Source of the DNA: Shigella phage SfMu
DNA length: 37,146 nt
Sequence record: KP010268
Strand: one strand, 5' to 3'
This document shows, piece after piece, positions 6,263 through 36,196 of this stretch. The position numbers were made by a program, and so were the translations under genes. How positions within the stretch are numbered: the first letter of the stretch is position 1; each line of letters begins with the position of its first letter. The notes below the pieces were generated by a model. The model was not told the origin of the DNA, did not search any database, and saw only the letters and a program-made list of their open reading frames with translations.

Positions 6263-6359
6263 TACCACCATTAATATTTAATTAATTCACATTCTTTTAA
6301 TTATGGCGCGATGCGTCAGGGGACGACTCGCGCCTGAATCAGGACCAGAGGAAATGAAT

Positions 6360-6908
6360 ATGAAAGCATATGCTTATTTTAAACTGAGTGACGCAGCCGC
6401 TAACGGTTATACGATTCGCTGGCTGAAAGATGTTTCTGTTAAGCGTGACAAAATCATCTGCTCATTGCAGCGTGCGTTTGGCGCAGACGGTGTTTCCCTT
6501 GTCAGTAACAGAGGGTATGAACGGGTTGAATGTATCTGGATGAATCAATTAGCGCCGGAATTATGGCGTGGTAAATCAGACGGACTGTTTATTGGTGGAT
6601 TTCAGTTTTATGGCGTTGTACCGGATATAACAACACCGGAAGGCCGAAACAATGCGACGCTTATTCAGGAACATGAAGAGCAACTCCGGAAATATCCCAC
6701 ATTCCCGGTCTGGTTGTGTAATGAACTCGGGGTTGATGTTGTACCCAACATGTTTGATCTCAAATCAGTCTGGACGATGCACCACAGCCGTGACGGATTC
6801 GGCATTTTGTTTGAGGTGTGCCTGCTGGATGGTGAGGTTAAGGGACCGGTTCCTGCCGAATGCCAGCGCATTAAACATTCTGAATTTGTGGCACTGACGG
6901 AGGAATAA
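6360..6908 (+). CDS. Hypothetical early protein (182 aa)
   Basis: AGAGGA RBS 7 nt upstream of ATG 6360; six-frame ORF extends to 6303. Confidence 0.6.
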   Translation: MKAYAYFKLSDAAANGYTIRWLKDVSVKRDKIICSLQRAFGADGVSLVSNRGYERVECIWMNQLAPELWRGKSDGLFIGGFQFYGVVPDITTPEGRNNATLIQEHEEQLRKYPTFPVWLCNELGVDVVPNMFDLKSVWTMHHSRDGFGILFEVCLLDGEVKGPVPAECQRIKHSEFVALTEE

Positions 6909-8748: not shown

Positions 8749-8953
8749 TAATGTCTTCCATGATCTTTGACAGTTGCATGTTTTCGCGGCGGCTTGTTCT
8801 TATTGCAGGCGCATCTTTTAAAATCTCTGCTGAAGAGCTGAAAATGGCCTGGCCCTCTTCTGCGGTGATGATCGCCTTCTTCACCAGAAGGCGCACCAGT
8901 GCTGATGCAATCGCATAACCTGCAACATCATAAGGTTGTACATTATTTTCCAT
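8687..8953 (-). CDS. Candidate reverse-oriented small ORF (88 aa) in the early operon
   Basis: Minus-strand ORF spanning the 274-bp plus-strand gap before gemA; GAGG RBS 5 nt upstream of its ATG; no homology recognised. Confidence 0.3.
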   Translation of the reverse strand: MENNVQPYDVAGYAIASALVRLLVKKAIITAEEGQAIFSSSAEILKDAPAIRTSRRENMQLSKIMEDIISSLDPDADGSQKPQTHERQ

Positions 8954-9022
8954 AAAATCCTCTCTGATTGATGTGTAAATTCAGGCGGTGTTGCAGCACC
9001 GCCTCTTTCCGGAGGTACGATC

Positions 9023-10380: not shown

Positions 10381-10803
10381 ATGCAGCATGATTTATTTGA
10401 ACACGATCCGGCAATTCGCCAGTTAATCGGGCATATTGATAACATCCCGGCCCCGGAACTGGAATCACGCTGGCCCCGTTCAGTGGTTGATCTGATTGAT
10501 GTTCTGGAAAACGAACTGAAACGCCAGAACGTCAGCAATCCCCGTGAGCTTGCCCGTAAACAGGCCGTTGCCCTGTCCTGTTTTCTGGGGGGGCGGCAGT
10601 TTTACATCCCCTGCGGCGATACGATCCTGACCGCGTTACGCGACGATTTGCTTTACTGCCAGTTCAATGGTCGTAACATGGAAGAACTGCGTCGCCAGTA
10701 CCGCCTGTCCCAGCCGCAGATCTACCAGATTATTGCCCGCCAGAGAAAGCTGCATACACGACGTCATCAGCCTGATCTGTTCTCACCTGAAAGCCAGAAA
10801 TAA
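10381..10803 (+). CDS. C: C, late gene transcription activator
   Basis: 140 aa MQHDLFEHDPAIRQLIGHIDNIPAPELE... recognised as Mu C; Mor paralog (shared ...FYIPCGDTIL / QVYIPRGQVL and ...CQFNGRNMEEL / NDFNGRNVSEL). Confidence 0.9.
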   Translation: MQHDLFEHDPAIRQLIGHIDNIPAPELESRWPRSVVDLIDVLENELKRQNVSNPRELARKQAVALSCFLGGRQFYIPCGDTILTALRDDLLYCQFNGRNMEELRRQYRLSQPQIYQIIARQRKLHTRRHQPDLFSPESQK

Positions 10804-10894
10804 CCGGCATCCTGCCGGTTATTTCCTGTCACCATAATCCCGCACCTGCCATCTGATTTTTTAGACTGCCATCAGAGCATTTTTTCAGGGAAGC
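10804..10894 (+). promoter_or_regulatory. Putative late promoter Plys (C-dependent), overlapping a hairpin at the C stop
   Basis: Motif CATAATCCCGCACCT about 48-56 bp upstream of lys ATG, shared with the region upstream of gene I; hairpin AACCGGCA-TCC-TGCCGGTT at 10802..10820. Confidence 0.5.
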
Positions 10895-11413
10895 ATGATG
10901 GCGGGGATACCAAAAAAACTGAAAGCCGCACTGCTGGCGGCAACGATTGCCGGTGGCGGTGTGGGTGGTTATCAGGAAATGACCCGTCATTCTCTGATCC
11001 ATCTGGAAAATATCGCTTATATGCCTTACCGCGATATTGCCAGTGTGCTTACGGTCTGTGTGGGACATACCGGGCCGGATATCGAAATGCGCCGTTACAG
11101 CCATGCGGAGTGTATGGCTTTTCTCGACAGTGATTTAAAACCGGTTTATGCGGCAATCGATCGTCTTGTCAGGGTGCCGCTGACGCCATATCAGAAAACG
11201 GCGCTGGCAACGTTTATTTTCAACACCGGTGTTACCGCATTCAGTAAATCAACGCTGCTGAAAAAACTCAATGCCGGTGATTACGCCGGAGCGCGTGACC
11301 AGATGGCCCGCTGGGTGTTTGCCGCAGGCCATAAATGGAAAGGACTGATGAACCGTCGCGAAGTGGAAATGGCTATCTGGAATATCAGGGGGGCGGATGA
11401 CCTTCGCCAGTAA
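10895..11413 (+). CDS. lys: Endolysin (lysozyme-like, SAR-type N-terminus)
   Basis: 172 aa; Gly/Ala-rich weakly hydrophobic N-terminus KKLKAALLAATIAGGGVGGY typical of signal-anchor-release endolysins; recognised as Mu Lys. Confidence 0.88.
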   Translation: MMAGIPKKLKAALLAATIAGGGVGGYQEMTRHSLIHLENIAYMPYRDIASVLTVCVGHTGPDIEMRRYSHAECMAFLDSDLKPVYAAIDRLVRVPLTPYQKTALATFIFNTGVTAFSKSTLLKKLNAGDYAGARDQMARWVFAAGHKWKGLMNRREVEMAIWNIRGADDLRQ

Positions 11414-18280: not shown

Positions 18281-18476
18281 ACAGAATCAGGCATAAAATC
18301 AGCCGCACAGATTTTTTAAAACGCGCCACGGGATTTTTAAACCGGTATTTAACGGTGTATGAATCCCGTTTTATCTTCCTTCCACTTTCTTTCTCCATTA
18401 CTCAAATAGCATAACCCCAGATTTTCCCGCACCTCCCGCAAACTGACTGCTCACAAACCATGATGAGCAGCAGGAC
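18281..18476. promoter_or_regulatory. Central intergenic region: probable strong gyrase site plus late promoter PI
   Basis: 196-bp non-coding gap at the genome midpoint between G and I; motif ATAACCCC...CCCGCACCT 43-60 bp upstream of I start. Confidence 0.55.
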
Positions 18477-19562
18477 ATGAAAAAACACGCGATTGGCATT
18501 GCCGCATTGAGTGCGCTGTCCATTGACGATGACGGCTGGTGCCAGCTATTGCCTGCCGGTCATTTCAGTGCCCGTGATGGTCGTCCGTTTGATGTGACAG
18601 GTGGTCAGGGGTGGTTCATCGACGGTGAGATTGCCGGGCGTCTGGTTGAAGGCGTTCGCGCGCTCAACCAGGACGTGCTGATTGATTACGAGCATAACCA
18701 GCTACGTAAGGACAAAGGATTACCCCCGGAACAACTCGTCGCGGCTGGCTGGTTTAACGCCGATGAAATGCAGTGGCGTGAAGGTGAAGGATTATTTATC
18801 CACCCACGCTGGACGGCGGCGGCACAGCAGCGCATCGATGACGGTGAATTTGGTTATCTCTCTGCGGTTTTTCCGTATGACACCGCCACCGGTGCGGTGC
18901 TGCAAATCCGCCTTGCTGCGCTGACCAATGACCCCGGTGCCACCGGCATGAAAAAGCTGACCGCACTGGCGGCAGACCTTCCCGACATCCTTCAACAGGA
19001 GAACAAACCCATGAATGAAACGCTGCGCAAGCTGCTTGCGCGTCTTGGGGTGACGGTCCCCGAAAATGCAGACATCACCGATGAACAGGCCAGCGCGGCC
19101 CTGAGTGCGCTTGATGCGCTCGAAACAGATGCCGGAAAAGTGGCGTCGTTATCCGCCGAACTGGAAAAGGCACAGAAAGCCGCCGTTGACCTGACGAAAT
19201 ACGTCCCGGTGGAAAGCTACAACGCCCTGCGTGATGAACTGGCACAGGCGACTGCACAAAGCGCCACAGCCAGCCTGAGCGCCGTTCTGGATAAGGCGGA
19301 ACAGGAAGGCCGCATTTTCAAAAGCGAACGTGCCTATCTGGAACAGCTTGGCGGTCAGATTGGCGTGGCGGCACTGTCGGCACAGCTTGAGAAAAAACAG
19401 CCCATCGCTGCGTTATCTGCCATGCAGACCACCACAGCGAAAATCCCGTCGCAGGAAAAAACGGCTGTGGCGGTGCTGTCTGCTGATGAACAGGCAGCAG
19501 TGAAGGCGCTCGGCATTACAGAGGCTGAGTATCTGAAAATGAAACAGGAACAAGAAAAATGA
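18477..19562 (+). CDS. I: Head maturation protease / scaffold protein (Mu I-like)
   Basis: 361 aa; Ala/Glu/Gln-rich helical C-terminal half typical of scaffold; position before major capsid gene. Confidence 0.75.
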   Translation: MKKHAIGIAALSALSIDDDGWCQLLPAGHFSARDGRPFDVTGGQGWFIDGEIAGRLVEGVRALNQDVLIDYEHNQLRKDKGLPPEQLVAAGWFNADEMQWREGEGLFIHPRWTAAAQQRIDDGEFGYLSAVFPYDTATGAVLQIRLAALTNDPGATGMKKLTALAADLPDILQQENKPMNETLRKLLARLGVTVPENADITDEQASAALSALDALETDAGKVASLSAELEKAQKAAVDLTKYVPVESYNALRDELAQATAQSATASLSAVLDKAEQEGRIFKSERAYLEQLGGQIGVAALSAQLEKKQPIAALSAMQTTTAKIPSQEKTAVAVLSADEQAAVKALGITEAEYLKMKQEQEK

Positions 19563-26625: not shown

Positions 26626-28113
26626 ATGTTTGAAGATGCTTTAAATGCCGTTAATGCTGTCCGGGATAAAACCGGTGGAGGCAGGAAAACAACCGGCAAA
26701 GGCACGTTCCGTAACGTGCCGTTTCTCGTCATCGAGGAGCAAAAACAGGCTGGCGGACGTCGCCTGGTTAAACGCGAGTACCCGTTACGTGATACCGGCG
26801 GCGTCAATGACCTGGGGAAAAAGCTTCGCTCCCGTACATTCAGCGCCTGCATTCTGAACAGTAACGCAGAAACAGCCAGAGATGAAGCGGATGCGCTGAT
26901 GGATGCTCTTGATGCTCCGGGCAGCGGTGAGCTGGTACATCCTGATTTCGGCACTGTGGACGTCATGGTGGATTCATGGGAATGCCGCACTAAAGCGGAT
27001 GAACTGAATTATTACGCGTTCACCGTTACCGTTTATCCGTCGTTGCAGGATACTGCCCCGGACGCAGAAACAGACACCAGTGCAGCCGTACCGGCACAGG
27101 CTGTTGCTGTAACCGGTTCTCTGGGGGATACGCTGTCCTCTGTCTGGCAGACCGTAAAAGATGGCACTGCGGCGGCAACCGCCGTGATGGAAGCTGTAAC
27201 CGGTGTCATCGATGATATCAGTGATGCGGTGGACAATCTGGGGGTTACGCAGACTGTCAGCGGTCTGATGGGATCGCTTTCTGCGATGAAAGGCTCTGTG
27301 ACCAGCCTGATTAACCAGCCTGCCATGCTGGCCTCCTCGCTGATGGGGGCGCTGTCCGGCGTTTCATCGTTATGCGATACCCGGACAGCATTTTCCACAT
27401 GGAACCGTCTGGCGCAGCGATTCGAACGTCGCCATGCCGCCACCGCAGGCAGACAGGGGGCAATCACAACCTCGTACAACAGTCCGGTTGCAGAAAAAAA
27501 TATTGCCACACTGAACTACGTCATGCTGGCAGCGGCGCAGACATACCGGGCAGAAGCTGCCAGCCAGGCACTGACTGCGGCACTGGATTTCAGTCGCCGG
27601 ATGGATAATGCCGCCCGTGCACCTGTACTGGATGCCCCGTCCACCACAACCGGCACAGCCAGCGGGGCCAGCAGCACATCTGCTACCGTCACACAGGGAC
27701 AGTTACAGTTAACTGCCATAACCCCGGACGGCGGCTTTTCACAGGTATCCTTTTCAGACAGTGGTACAGCCACGCCCCCGGTATTTGAAAGTGTGTCCGA
27801 TATCGGAAAAACAGCCGCCATGCTGGGGGCTGCACTGGATACCGTCATTCTGACGGCATCTGAGCAGGGCTTTTCGACAGACAGCGTTCAGCTTACGCAA
27901 CTGCGTCTGCTGGTTGTTGCCGACCTGGAAAAACGCGGGCTGCAACTGGCGGGCAGTGAAACGCACCGCCTGCCGGAGACGATGCCTGCAATGGTGGCCC
28001 TGTACCGTTACACAGGAAACAGCCGGAACTGGCAACGGCTGGCCCGCAGGAACGGTATCAGCAACCCGTTGTTTGTTCCCGGTGGTGTCAGTATTGAGGT
28101 GATTAATGAGTAA
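26626..28113 (+). CDS. Tail/DNA circularisation protein (Mu N-like)
   Basis: 495 aa downstream of tape measure; assignment by position and size. Confidence 0.6.
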
Positions 28114-31870: not shown

Positions 31871-33336
31871 TGTTTTATATTGATAACGACAGCGGCGTAA
31901 CCGTCATGCCGCCCGTATCCGCCCAGCGTAGTGCTATCGTTCGCTGGTTTTCAGAAGGTGACGGGAATAATGTTATCACATGGCCCGGCATGGACTGGTT
32001 TAATATTGTGCAGGCGGAGTTATTAAACACGCTGGAAGAAGCCGGTATTCAACCGGATAAAACAAAATTAAACCAGCTTGCACTGTCCATTAAAGCCATT
32101 ATGAGCAATAACGCGCTGCTGATAAAAAATAACCTCAGCGAAATTAAAACTGCCGGGGCATCAGCACAGCGTACAGCACGTGAAAATCTGGATATCTATG
32201 ATGCCAGCCTGAACAAAAAAGGACTCGTTCAGCTAACCAGTGCCACTGACAGCCCCAGTGAAACGCTGGCAGCCACCGCAAAAGCGGTGAAAATTGCGAT
32301 GGATAATGCCAGTGCCCGTCTGGCAAAAGACCGGAACGGAGCAGATATTCCCAATAAGCCGCTGTTTATCCAAAACGTCGGTTTACAGGAAACGGTAAAT
32401 CAGGCTTCTGGCGCATTACAGAAAAACCAGAACGGTGCAGATATTCCAGGAAAAGATACCTTCACCAAAAATATTGGTGCCTGCCGCGCATATAGCGCAT
32501 GGGTGGATATTGGTGGCGATAGTCAGGTCTGGACAACTGCGCAATTTATTTCGTGGCTGGAGAGTCAGGGGGCATTTAACCATCCTTACTGGATGTGCAA
32601 AGGCTCATGGGCTTATGCAAATAATAAGGTCATTACAGATACAGGTTGCGGAAATATTTGTCTTGCAGGTGCTGTGGTGGAAGTTATTGGCACTCGCGGC
32701 GCAATGACCATACGTGTTACTACACCGAGTACGTCCAGCGGTGGCGGAATTACTAACGCTCAATTCACTTATATTAATCATGGCAATGCTTATGCTCCTG
32801 GCTGGCGACGAGACTACAACACGAAAAACCAGCAGCCTGCATTTGCTTTAGGGCAAACAGGAAATACCGTCGGAAACGACAAAGCCGTTGGCTGGAACTG
32901 GAATAGCGGTGTTTATGATGCAGATATCAGCGGTGCATCAACATTAATCCTCCACTTCAATAAGAATACGGGGAGCTGCCCTGCTGTACAGTTCCGTGTG
33001 AATTATAAGAACGGCGGTATTTTTTATCGTTCAGCGCGTGATGGTTATGGATTTGAGGCTGGCTGGTCAGAGTTTTACACCACAACACGCAAGCCATCAG
33101 CGAGAGATGTTGGCGCATATACGCAGGCAGAATGTAACTCAAGGTTTATTACAGGTATTCGCCTTGGTGGTCTGTCATCTGTTCGGACATGGAATGGTCC
33201 CGGCTGGTCTGACAGGTCAGGTTATGTTGTTACCGGTTCCGTTAACTCAAACAGAGATGAACTAATTGATACAACTCAGGCAAGGCCAGTTCAGTATTGC
33301 ATTAATGGGACGTGGTATAACGCGGGGAGTATTTAA
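31870..33336 (+). CDS. S: Tail fibre protein S: constant part fused to the variable part of the G segment in the current orientation
   Basis: 488 aa; gix recombination site lies inside the ORF at 32366..32391; C-terminus ...VQYCINGTWYNAGSI parallels the C-terminus of the inverted copy S'. Confidence 0.85.
   Translation: MFYIDNDSGVTVMPPVSAQRSAIVRWFSEGDGNNVITWPGMDWFNIVQAELLNTLEEAGIQPDKTKLNQLALSIKAIMSNNALLIKNNLSEIKTAGASAQRTARENLDIYDASLNKKGLVQLTSATDSPSETLAATAKAVKIAMDNASARLAKDRNGADIPNKPLFIQNVGLQETVNQASGALQKNQNGADIPGKDTFTKNIGACRAYSAWVDIGGDSQVWTTAQFISWLESQGAFNHPYWMCKGSWAYANNKVITDTGCGNICLAGAVVEVIGTRGAMTIRVTTPSTSSGGGITNAQFTYINHGNAYAPGWRRDYNTKNQQPAFALGQTGNTVGNDKAVGWNWNSGVYDADISGASTLILHFNKNTGSCPAVQFRVNYKNGGIFYRSARDGYGFEAGWSEFYTTTRKPSARDVGAYTQAECNSRFITGIRLGGLSSVRTWNGPGWSDRSGYVVTGSVNSNRDELIDTTQARPVQYCINGTWYNAGSI
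32366..32391. repeat. gixL recombination site
   Basis: TTATCCAAAACGTCGGTTTACAGGAA inside S. Confidence 0.8.
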
Positions 33337-33338
33337 CG

Positions 33339-33872
33339 ATGATGCACTTAAAAAACATTTCTGCTGGTAATCCTGAAACAAAAGAGCAATACCAGCTAAC
33401 GAAACAATTTAACATCAAATGGCTTTATACAGAGGATGGGAAAAACTGGTATGAGGAACAAAAGAACTTTCAGCCTGATACGTTGAAAATGGTCTATGAC
33501 CACAACGGCGTTATTATTTGTATTGAAAAGGATGTTTCAGCAATTAATCCGGAAGGCGCAAGCGTCGTTGAGGTTCCTGATATTACAGCAAATCGCCGGG
33601 CTGATATTTCAGGTAAATGGATGTTCAAAGATGGCGTAGTGATAAAGCGAACTTATACCGGGGAAGAGCAGAGGCAACAAGCGGAAAATGAAAAGCAAAG
33701 CCTGCTACAGCTCGTCAGGGATAAAACCCAGCTATGGGACTCACAGCTACGGCTGGGCATTATTTCCGACGAGAATAAACAAAAATTAACCGAGTGGATG
33801 CTCTATGCGCAGAAGGTCGAATCCACAGACACCTCCAGCCTGCCAGTAACGTTTCCCGAACAACCAGAATGA
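33339..33872 (+). CDS. U: Tail fibre assembly protein U
   Basis: 177 aa; N-terminal two-thirds nearly identical to minus-strand U' (MMHLKNI.AGN..T.EQY.LTK...[19 protein letters not shown]). Confidence 0.85.
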   Translation: MMHLKNISAGNPETKEQYQLTKQFNIKWLYTEDGKNWYEEQKNFQPDTLKMVYDHNGVIICIEKDVSAINPEGASVVEVPDITANRRADISGKWMFKDGVVIKRTYTGEEQRQQAENEKQSLLQLVRDKTQLWDSQLRLGIISDENKQKLTEWMLYAQKVESTDTSSLPVTFPEQPE

Positions 33873-33875
33873 AAC

Positions 33876-33895
33876 AAGGCCCGATATCGGGCCTT
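33876..33895. terminator. Bidirectional hairpin between convergent U and U'
   Basis: Self-complementary AAGGCCCGATATCGGGCCTT flanked by A/T runs on both sides. Confidence 0.7.
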
Positions 33896-33900
33896 AATTT

Positions 33901-34428
33901 TTATTCAGGCTTTTGTGGCCATTCAGGATTTGCCGTATCCACACGGCTGACCAGAACACTGTAGCGTTCCCATGACTCCAGTCGTGCGTGTTCCTCATCC
34001 GTCGCCATATTCAGCCTGACAGCGCGTTCCAGCGGCTGGATGACTGATTCAGCTTCGGAAAGTAACGCGGCCTTTTGTGATTCGGCCTGTTGCTGCTGTT
34101 CGTCTGCTGTATAAGTCCTCCTGACCACCGCTCCGTCCTTAAACATCCACTTCCCTGAATCATCGGCACGACGGTTAGCTGTTATATCGGGGATTTCAAC
34201 GACGCTAAAACCTTCAGGATTAAGCGTGGAGGCATCTTTAGTGACGGCGACAATAATATTATTTTCGTCGTAAACAATCTTTATTGTATCCGGCTGAAAG
34301 TTCTTCACTTCCTCATACCAGTTTTTCCCGTCTTCAGCGTAAAGCCAGATGACTCCGTGCTTCTTTGTTAACTCATACTGCTCCAGTGTTTTAGCATTAC
34401 CCGCTTTTATGTTCTTTAAGTGCATCAT
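33901..34428 (-). CDS. Alternative tail fibre assembly protein U'
   Basis: 175 aa paralog of U on the minus strand inside the G segment. Confidence 0.85.
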
Positions 34429-34429
34429 A

Positions 34430-35395
34430 TTAAACGCTCGCTACATTATACCATGTGCCATTTATATACTTTTGAACGGGTCTGTAATAAACGCCAGCTA
34501 TATTATCGGCAGAGTTTTTGCCTGTATCCTGAACATTAATACCAGACAATACATGACCTGAAGGGCACTGGAAATTCCATGTTTGCCAGTTATTCACACC
34601 ATAATATTGCTGTGAGCCAAGCCGGACATCTTTCACATATCTGGAGTCAAAATTGCCATAATTGCCGGGAATAACTTGCGCACCACAAAGCCAGTTACCG
34701 TTATTATCCATGTACGCCTGACCATCGGTGCCATTGGCTGTCCTTGAGTTATTAATCATGTAGATGCCAAATTGCTTATTTCCCAGACCGCCAATCATAA
34801 ATTTGCGGTCGGCATGGTCCTGACGGAGCAAAGCCTGAGCACCATCAGTGGATACCGCATTACGTCCCAAAATAACATTCTGGTCACGCATATGAATCCA
34901 CATGCCGGTACTACTGTTAATTGCAAAACGGTTTGCAAATATATCCCCTGTAACATCAAGACCATGCCCCATGCTTATCCGGCCAGTTCTGAGATTAAGC
35001 GTAAAGGGGCGTAGTGGCCCTATATTACCATTTTCCCCTTCATTCTCTCGTGTAGGGATGATATGCAGGCATTCTTCAGAACGACGAAAAATGGCACCAA
35101 AAGATGAATTAAATATCCTCAGTGCATTGACTGTCGATATTTTCACTTCACTGCTGAAAAGGGCTTCAACAAGAACAGACAAAGCATTCCATTTAAGATT
35201 CATCAGGTCTTTAGGCCGGGTGCCAATGATGCGGTGTCTCCATTTGAAATATTCATTGCCGTTGTTGCCTGTTTCAAACCACATGTAGGAATCGGTGTCT
35301 GCATCCGAATTATTTTTAAACCCAATCTTTGCCCAGTCAGTATTTCGAATCCAGGCAAGGATTGAGTCGTTTTCAAAAGTAAGTCCACCGGACAA
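34430..35395 (-). CDS. Alternative tail fibre variable part S' (no own start; expressed only after G inversion fuses it to the constant part of S)
   Basis: Minus-strand open frame continues through gixR without a start; C-terminus ...[15 protein letters not shown] matches end of S. Confidence 0.8.
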
Positions 35396-35440
35396 CGTAT
35401 CGCCTGTCTTTTGAACAGCGTTACCAGCCTTGTTTACCGT

Positions 35441-35466
35441 TTCCTGTAAACCGAGGTTTTAGATAA
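35441..35466. repeat. gixR recombination site
   Basis: TTCCTGTAAACCGAGGTTTTAGATAA, inverted copy of gixL with 2 mismatches. Confidence 0.8.
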
Positions 35467-36114: not shown

Positions 36115-36196
36115 TATAGATCGATTATGCCCCAATAACCACACTCAACCCACGATGTTTTTTAAGATAGTGGCGAATTGATGCAAAGGAGGTGAG
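36088..36196 (+). promoter_or_regulatory. mom operon control region: three clustered GATC sites, C-activator site and Pmom
   Basis: GATC at about 36088, 36106 and 36119; ATTATGCCCCAATAACC immediately downstream; then AAGGAGG RBS for com. Confidence 0.75.

Follow-up and report, generated by a model that had tools for sequence, protein, structure and literature searches.

The late promoters of a Mu-type phage genome

The gene for the late activator C is followed by a hairpin, at the place where the Mu record puts a terminator at the end of C, then by the late promoter Plys, and then by lys, the ATG of which is at 10895. A second late promoter, PI, is located between genes G and I, with the ATG of I at 18477. 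The window (the whole stretch of DNA that was analysed, 37,146 bp) is the complete genome of a Mu-type transposable phage; it aligns collinearly with Mu AF083977 and is 95-98% identical to it. (Relative to AF083977, the left end with the immunity region, positions 1-1450 of the window, is without a megablast match, there is unmatched or extra DNA near 6.3-6.9 kb (6342-6897), and the invertible G segment, in the interval 32366-35466 of the window, is inverted.)

The annotation of AF083977 gives Plys, PI, PP, and Pmom each as a 67-mer, and all four of these late promoters could be placed on the window at 98-100% identity (Table 1). For these four experimentally mapped, C-dependent late promoters the record cites Margolin et al. 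1989 (Margolin, Rao and Howe; PMID 2522923). For Plys and PI the genomic places are the same in Mu and in the window, Plys between C and lys and PI between G and I, with no difference in either the -10 hexamers or the CATAAYCCC box. At Plys the window reads GCCATCTG where Mu reads GCCACCTG, and GAGCAT where Mu reads GAGAAT; at PI the first base of the 67-mer is T in the window and G in Mu. The differences in the two promoters are thus single-base changes that leave the box, the -10 hexamer, and the 10-mer considered below untouched; Mu itself carries this 10-mer in both Plys and PI, as does the window.

Table 1. Coordinates of gene C, of the four late promoters, and of their elements in the window
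Feature	Position	Strand	Remarks
Gene C	10381-10803	+	Late activator, 140 aa; 98.6% identical to Mu C
Hairpin	10802-10822	+	AACCGGCAtcctGCCGGTT, then ATTT
Plys 67-mer	10821-10887	+	About 98% identical to AF083977 Plys
Plys dyad slot	10823-10838	+	TTCCTGTCACCATAAT, 16-bp imperfect dyad, centre about -43.5; proximal core CATAATCCC at 10833-10841
10-mer in Plys	10838-10847	+	TCCCGCACCT; about -36 to -27; directly adjoins the ATAA half-site; only TCC(C) within the conserved box
Plys -10 hexamer	10862-10867	+	TAGACT; predicted start 10874/10875
PI 67-mer	18398-18464	+	About 98% identical to AF083977 PI
PI dyad slot	18400-18415	+	ACTCAAATAGCATAAC; proximal core CATAACCCC at 18410-18418
10-mer in PI	18425-18434	+	TCCCGCACCT; about -26 to -17; falls within the spacer that separates C box and -10 hexamer
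PI -10 hexamer	18439-18444	+	CAAACT; predicted start 18451/18452
PP 67-mer	27705-27771	+	AF083977 PP mapped to the window
PP late promoter	27707-27751	+	Inside gene N; dyad slot AGTTAACTGCCATAAC; core CATAACCCC at 27717-27725; -10 TATCCT at 27746-27751
Pmom 67-mer	36122-36188	+	AF083977 Pmom mapped to the window
Pmom late promoter	36124-36168	+	C site ATTATGCCCCAATAAC(C); proposed -35 ACCACA at 36138-36143; -10 TAAGAT at 36163-36168

A consensus scan for sigma-70 promoters found no complete promoter at the Plys or the PI site; both have a recognisable -10 hexamer and lack a usable -35 hexamer. The absence of a full sigma-70 match fits expectation, because activator-dependent promoters of this kind have no -35 hexamer. 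Judged by their sequences, both sites are the classical C-activated late promoters Plys and PI, which were already known; C-dependent transcription from them is carried over from the Mu literature. The first-pass annotation, which had noticed a 9-mer, CCCGCACCT, upstream of both lys and I, was therefore correct in assigning both copies to C-dependent late promoters, given 67-mers about 98% identical to those of AF083977 and the same neighbouring genes. The related element that it had mentioned ahead of com and mom, ATTATGCCCCAATAACC, is present once (36124-36140) and is the textbook C site of Pmom. PP, the fourth late promoter, had been missed, and it is without the 9-mer.

The activator C and its probable mode of action

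The C protein keeps near-consensus beta-clamp-binding motifs, QHDLF (residues 2-6; 10381-10398) and QPDLF (residues 130-134; 10768-10782), both of which are also kept in diverged C homologues and were reported in 2026 to be needed for late transcription (PMC12867686). On the best-supported account, which is the established one, host sigma-70 RNA polymerase uses the -10 hexamers TAGACT and CAAACT of Plys and PI, there being no usable -35 hexamer. C, which belongs to the Mor/C family, binds TTAT-N5-6-ATAA, an imperfect dyad with its centre at about -43.5; CATAAYCCC is the conserved, promoter-proximal half, and the ATAAYCCC box is the proximal B half-site. For a long time models of C had it as a dimer; in a 2025 cryo-EM preprint the Pmom complex is described as a C tetramer that occupies an A site together with the B site and has an extended footprint (bioRxiv 10.1101/2025.05.02.651988). 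According to the Mu literature, C speeds the isomerisation of the closed to the open complex at Plys, PI, and PP. The Mu middle promoter Pm follows a like logic, in that an activator of the Mor/C family sits on a dyad just 5' of a defective -35; unlike the late promoters, however, Pm has another box sequence, requires both the alpha-CTD and the sigma-CTD, and is without the 10-mer. (Note that in what follows coordinates, register, conservation, and promoter homology were computed, and that C binding, footprints, required bases, and the kinetic step come from the literature.)

A word common to Plys and PI, offset by 10 bp

The 9-mer CCCGCACCT is present in the window as exactly two plus-strand copies, 10839-10847 and 18426-18434; the lys ATG is 48 nt from the first and the I ATG 43 nt from the second, as had been annotated. 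The identity reaches one base further left, so that the shared word is the 10-mer TCCCGCACCT (the 9-mer plus a 5' T), which is the longest, and the only 10-bp, word common to Plys and PI. It had also been claimed that ATAA(T/C)C precedes the 9-mer. This is true at Plys, where CATAAT runs directly into CCCGCACCT, but not at PI, where the ten bases CCCAGATTTT stand between ATAAC and the 9-mer (the PI ATAACC is at 18411-18416).

The four late-promoter 67-mers align without gaps. In all of them ATAA occupies positions 14-17 and the -10 hexamer positions 42-47, such that ATAA starts exactly 28 bp ahead of the -10 hexamer at four of the four promoters, and the only block common to them in register is ccATAAcCcC. 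In this frame the 10-mer takes up positions 18-27 in Plys (+4 to +13 relative to the box) and 28-37 in PI (+14 to +23), a displacement of 10 bp. No copy of the 10-mer with up to two mismatches was found in PP or Pmom.

The box, and not the word, picks out the late promoters. Exact CATAAYCCC has three matches in the window, namely Plys, PI, and PP. The composite pattern ATAAYCMM-N21-A-N3-T, which was designed only after the four promoters had been seen, gives four hits, one at each late promoter (0.6 hits expected; four reached in none of 100 shuffles). The strict dyad TTAT-N5-6-ATAA, also tried as a genome-wide discriminator, proved poor and was set aside: it has six matches in the window versus 0.67 expected (3408, 4401, 4464, 8943, 32099, and 36125), and the sole late promoter among them is Pmom (36125). 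(The match at 8943-8955 coincides with an annotation of the Mu record as a "semi-early promoter".)

The C site has been published as a 16-bp "imperfect dyad" centred at -43.5 (PMC2582627, Jiang & Howe) with the consensus TTAT-N5-6-ATAA (PMC12867686), and in keeping with this imperfection the distal half-site is a weak match at both Plys and PI. When set against the C site of Mu, which is best studied at Pmom, the ATAA(T/C)C part of the first-pass motif is the promoter-proximal half of the published site (PMC12867686, PMC2582627), with a fixed spacing to the -10 hexamer at each of the four promoters. The 9-mer, by contrast, is outside the dyad, and only its first two to three bases at Plys are among the adjacent downstream bases that are important (PMC2582627).

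Further features of these promoters can be noted. The hairpin at the end of C stops one base short of the distal C half-site of Plys, into which its ATTT tail extends by two bases. The sequence TTTTTTA is found in register at Plys (10857-10863) and Pmom (36158-36164), just 5' of the -10 hexamer; it is the "6T stretch" already marked by Swapna et al. 2015 (PMC4461284). Three other ideas about the surroundings of the 10-mer were discarded. A second C half-site ahead of the PI 10-mer is not credible, as the ATTT there is without the AA that is invariant in the Plys and PI boxes of the representatives of nine lineages. A minus-strand reading has only one overlapping open reading frame on that strand, 10829-11104, which starts far off and is unsupported. 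Finally, nothing joins the 10-mer to the nearby strong gyrase site, the cut site of which is about 125 bp away.

The 10-mer relative to the start site and the C footprint

Counted along the 67-mers, the transcription start was set at position 54 or 55 on three independent lines: the 16-bp dyad at -43.5 (PMC2582627), the -35-like ACCACA of Pmom with its 19-bp spacer (PMC2582627), and promoter oligos made with 20 nt downstream of +1 (PMC4461284). (The start positions are accordingly those implied by secondary citations and by oligo design.) C is reported to protect about -30 to -55 on Plys and Pmom, and the bases immediately downstream of the dyad are described as important (PMC2582627). In the same paper, point mutations in Plys are cited as showing that bases -52 to -34 and those of the -10 region are needed; on such secondary citations, -33 to -27 would be dispensable.

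Against these limits, the Plys 10-mer has seven bases in the footprint zone and its first three bases in the required region, whereas the PI 10-mer lies wholly outside the equivalent of the C footprint. The start positions, together with the published limits for C, thus put the PI word in the spacer and outside the zone of the activator. (No C footprint on PI itself was found in the accessible literature.)

These results bear directly on the first-pass proposal that C binds the 9-mer plus ATAA(T/C)C at both promoters. It is the case that both copies are within C-dependent promoters, and that the Plys word adjoins ATAA and has its first bases in the footprint and the required region. However, the register of the word differs by 10 bp between Plys and PI, the PI copy is 3' of the -30 to -55 zone, at Plys only the first three bases are within -52 to -34, the word is missing from PP and Pmom, and, as described below, it is not conserved where the ATAAYCCC box is kept, while the box is conserved and co-varies with C. 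We therefore regard this proposal as extremely improbable: TCCCGCACCT is not the binding site of the activator, and the ATAAYCCC-containing element just upstream is. The grounds for rejection that the first-pass annotation had named were frequent occurrence elsewhere in the genome and late transcripts that do not start downstream. The 9-mer is in fact rare (two copies genome-wide), and late transcripts begin 3' of it (with the starts known second-hand); neither property, however, is able to tell a word within a late promoter from the site of the activator.

How unusual is the match?

For the window as a whole, 0.42 copies of the 9-mer are expected, and at least two copies were present in 6 of 100 shuffles. 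To put a figure on the chance of a match between two promoters, we used pairs of 67-mers drawn from the window or dinucleotide shuffles of Plys and PI. The probability that two given 67-mers have a 9-mer in common is about 0.025, and the corresponding probability for a 10-mer is about 0.005-0.006, or about 0.03 over the six promoter pairs. The 10-mer match is nominally unusual, but not compelling. A probability of about 0.005 (about 0.03 over six pairs) does leave pure chance uncomfortable, and counts as evidence against it; the fact that two C-rich tracts are involved makes a chance match likelier. Moreover, Plys and PP share an 8-mer, ACTGCCAT, that is likewise out of register, which shows that matches of this sort do occur.

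The best gapped local alignment between Plys and PI covers 12 of 13 bases, a score equalled in 2.7% of shuffles. Overall identity between the two promoters peaks at offset 0 (26/61; 43%), is near-equal at +13 (21/48), and is unremarkable at +10 (18/51; 35%). The alignment is of relevance to the idea that the word is a relic of shared ancestry or recombination, PI having arisen, for example, from a Plys-like promoter by insertion of the 10 bp CCCAGATTTT after ATAAC. Removing CCCAGATTTT from PI yields CATAAC-CCCGCACCT, which is nearly Plys, and the 12 of 13 aligned bases are what such a history would leave. Yet the same removal cuts the distance from the box to the -10 hexamer to 18 bp, where 28 bp is invariant in all lineages, nothing similar is seen past 13 nt, with 35% identity at the 10-bp shift versus 43% in register, and the word has left no trace in diverged relatives. 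Shared ancestry or recombination as the source of the word seems to us highly improbable.

Note that the match is on record already. According to the legend to Fig 1B of Swapna et al. 2015 (PMC4461284) a Plys/PI match is marked by underlining, and it is given no function; since TCCCGCACCT is the sole 10-bp word that the two promoters share, the underlined match is this one. Both promoter oligos of that study contain the 9-mer. What is added here is that the match is out of register and that it is not conserved outside the Mu clade.

Conservation of the box and of the 10-mer in related phages and prophages

A DNA-level search of a phage collection returned relatives that were all at least 95% identical and thus uninformative on constraint. 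Similarly, among E. coli genomes with the region, 41 of 41 keep the PI segment at no less than 98.9% identity, and this set shows neither constraint nor its absence because the divergence is too low. We compared 42 related loci that were obtained by protein-guided retrieval on relatives of protein I, 35 of them from IMG/VR and seven from genomes (Kluyvera, Erwinia, Edwardsiella, Apirhabdus, and another enterobacterium), and chose nine lineage representatives in which the C protein is 53-100% identical.

When the sequences were anchored on the box, the arrangement of a box, 28 bp, and then a -10 hexamer of the form xAxxxT was found across lineages ahead of lys, ahead of I, and about 390 bp upstream of P. 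Information content was averaged over the nine representatives, a sample small enough for bias to inflate every value given here by about 0.2-0.3 bits. On this scale the box (-2 to +8) has 1.26 bits in the Plys set and 1.25 bits in the PI set, and the -10 hexamer 1.61 and 1.49 bits, respectively. In the Plys 10-mer slot, the TCCC part (+4 to +7) has 1.63 bits and the GCACCT part (+8 to +13) 0.25 bits. The PI 10-mer slot (+14 to +23) has 0.58 bits, and is thus conserved about as little as the rest of the PI spacer (+9 to +27; 0.69 bits).

Individual lineages give the same picture. The box ATAA(Y)CCC is present in the Mu clade and in lineages with C 72-75% identical, and the latter (L019-26 and L039) have the same CCATAAYCCC box and unrelated sequence in both 10-mer slots. 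In all but one of the non-Mu lineages the longest word common to the two promoters includes the box and is in register, with lengths of up to 21 nt (Kluyvera and Erwinia type); in the exception, L034, it is a chance 7-mer. A longest word that is out of register is seen in the Mu clade only. In a near-identical Mu prophage, L017 (9930-9950), TTTCCCCGCCCCT stands instead of TTTTCCCGCACCT; these are the only two substitutions in the 126 nt 5' of I, and both are within the PI 10-mer. (The changes in L017 could reflect relaxed constraint or an assembly error in runs of C.)

The box itself changes together with the activator. In Kluyvera- and Erwinia-type prophages (loci L027-L032, L035, L040, L041, L044, and L045) all three promoters, Plys, PI, and PP, have CCGGAATC(A/C/T)C instead, ATAA having become GGAA; the corresponding boxes of the window are at 10834, 18411, and 27718. 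The C protein of the GGAA-box lineage is about 64-67% identical and has the changes Q116D and P112T in the recognition helix. A joint switch from ATAA to GGAA that goes along with a change in the recognition helix is the behaviour expected of a true recognition element.

The spacers, compared in the window over 10848-10861 for Plys and 18415-18438 for PI, differ by promoter class in a manner that is kept across lineages (L004-L045), Plys being T-rich just 5' of the -10 hexamer and PI being C/G-rich (CCCG, CGCGT). This composition may be tied to the differing kinetics of the promoters. (In L031, at about 2235-2300, and at the matching 5' end of lys in L045, a 9-bp tandem repeat, (CCCCAAAAG)n, in the first part of the lys homologue encodes a repeated Pro-Lys-Ser tract.)

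Does the 10-mer have a function?

With these data we considered whether the 10-mer could be a real functional element of the Mu clade, in contact with the C tetramer or with RNA polymerase (sigma region 4 or the spacer), that tunes isomerisation and tolerates a shift of one turn. The nominal probability of about 0.005 speaks for a function, as does the offset of exactly 10 bp, which is one helical turn and would leave both copies facing the same side of the duplex. That Mu workers underlined the match in their Fig 1B (legend, PMC4461284), that the kinetic step on which C works is common to Plys and PI, and that the C tetramer has an extended footprint (bioRxiv 10.1101/2025.05.02.651988) would also be in keeping with it. 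On the other hand, PP lacks the 10-mer and is activated likewise, and the word is unconserved at either promoter where the ATAAYCCC box is kept and C is 72-75% identical. The required bases of Plys, as cited in PMC2582627, stop at -34, the PI word is in the spacer of the polymerase rather than in the activator zone, L017 has two changes inside the 10-mer, and the similarity is limited to 13 nt. On balance a functional element of this general kind is very unlikely. The more specific form of the idea, that TCCCGCACCT is an auxiliary element of the Mu clade which the downstream dimer of the C tetramer, or else RNA polymerase, recognises from a single face of the helix, is in our estimation likewise very unlikely; if it were true, the element would determine how strongly or at what time the lysis operon (Plys) and the head operon (PI) are expressed relative to PP and Pmom.

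We consider it highly likely that the two sites are known promoters that carry a non-functional, lineage-specific word match, a coincidence of two C-rich stretches. The Plys word opens with TCC(C), the 3' flank of the box, and then crosses the -35 zone, and the PI word falls within a C-rich spacer, displaced downstream by one turn of the helix. The 10-mer meets the C machinery solely through TCC(C) at Plys. The GCACCT part is most likely without function.

Implications for Mu-type late promoters

The first-pass annotation is thus partly supported, in that the promoters and the ATAAYC element were right and the core motif was wrong. Since textbook promoters and a match that had already been drawn were re-identified, the result carries little weight beyond correct annotation. 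With regard to such annotation, what is diagnostic of Mu-type late promoters is CATAAYCCC 28 bp before the -10 hexamer, and not the 9-mer; the composite pattern of box and -10 hexamer finds all four late promoters of the window and nothing else. The comparative data provide an example of an activator box that co-varies with its Mor/C-family activator across enterobacterial Mu-like prophages, and this co-variation could help to predict late promoters in transposable phages that are as yet unannotated.
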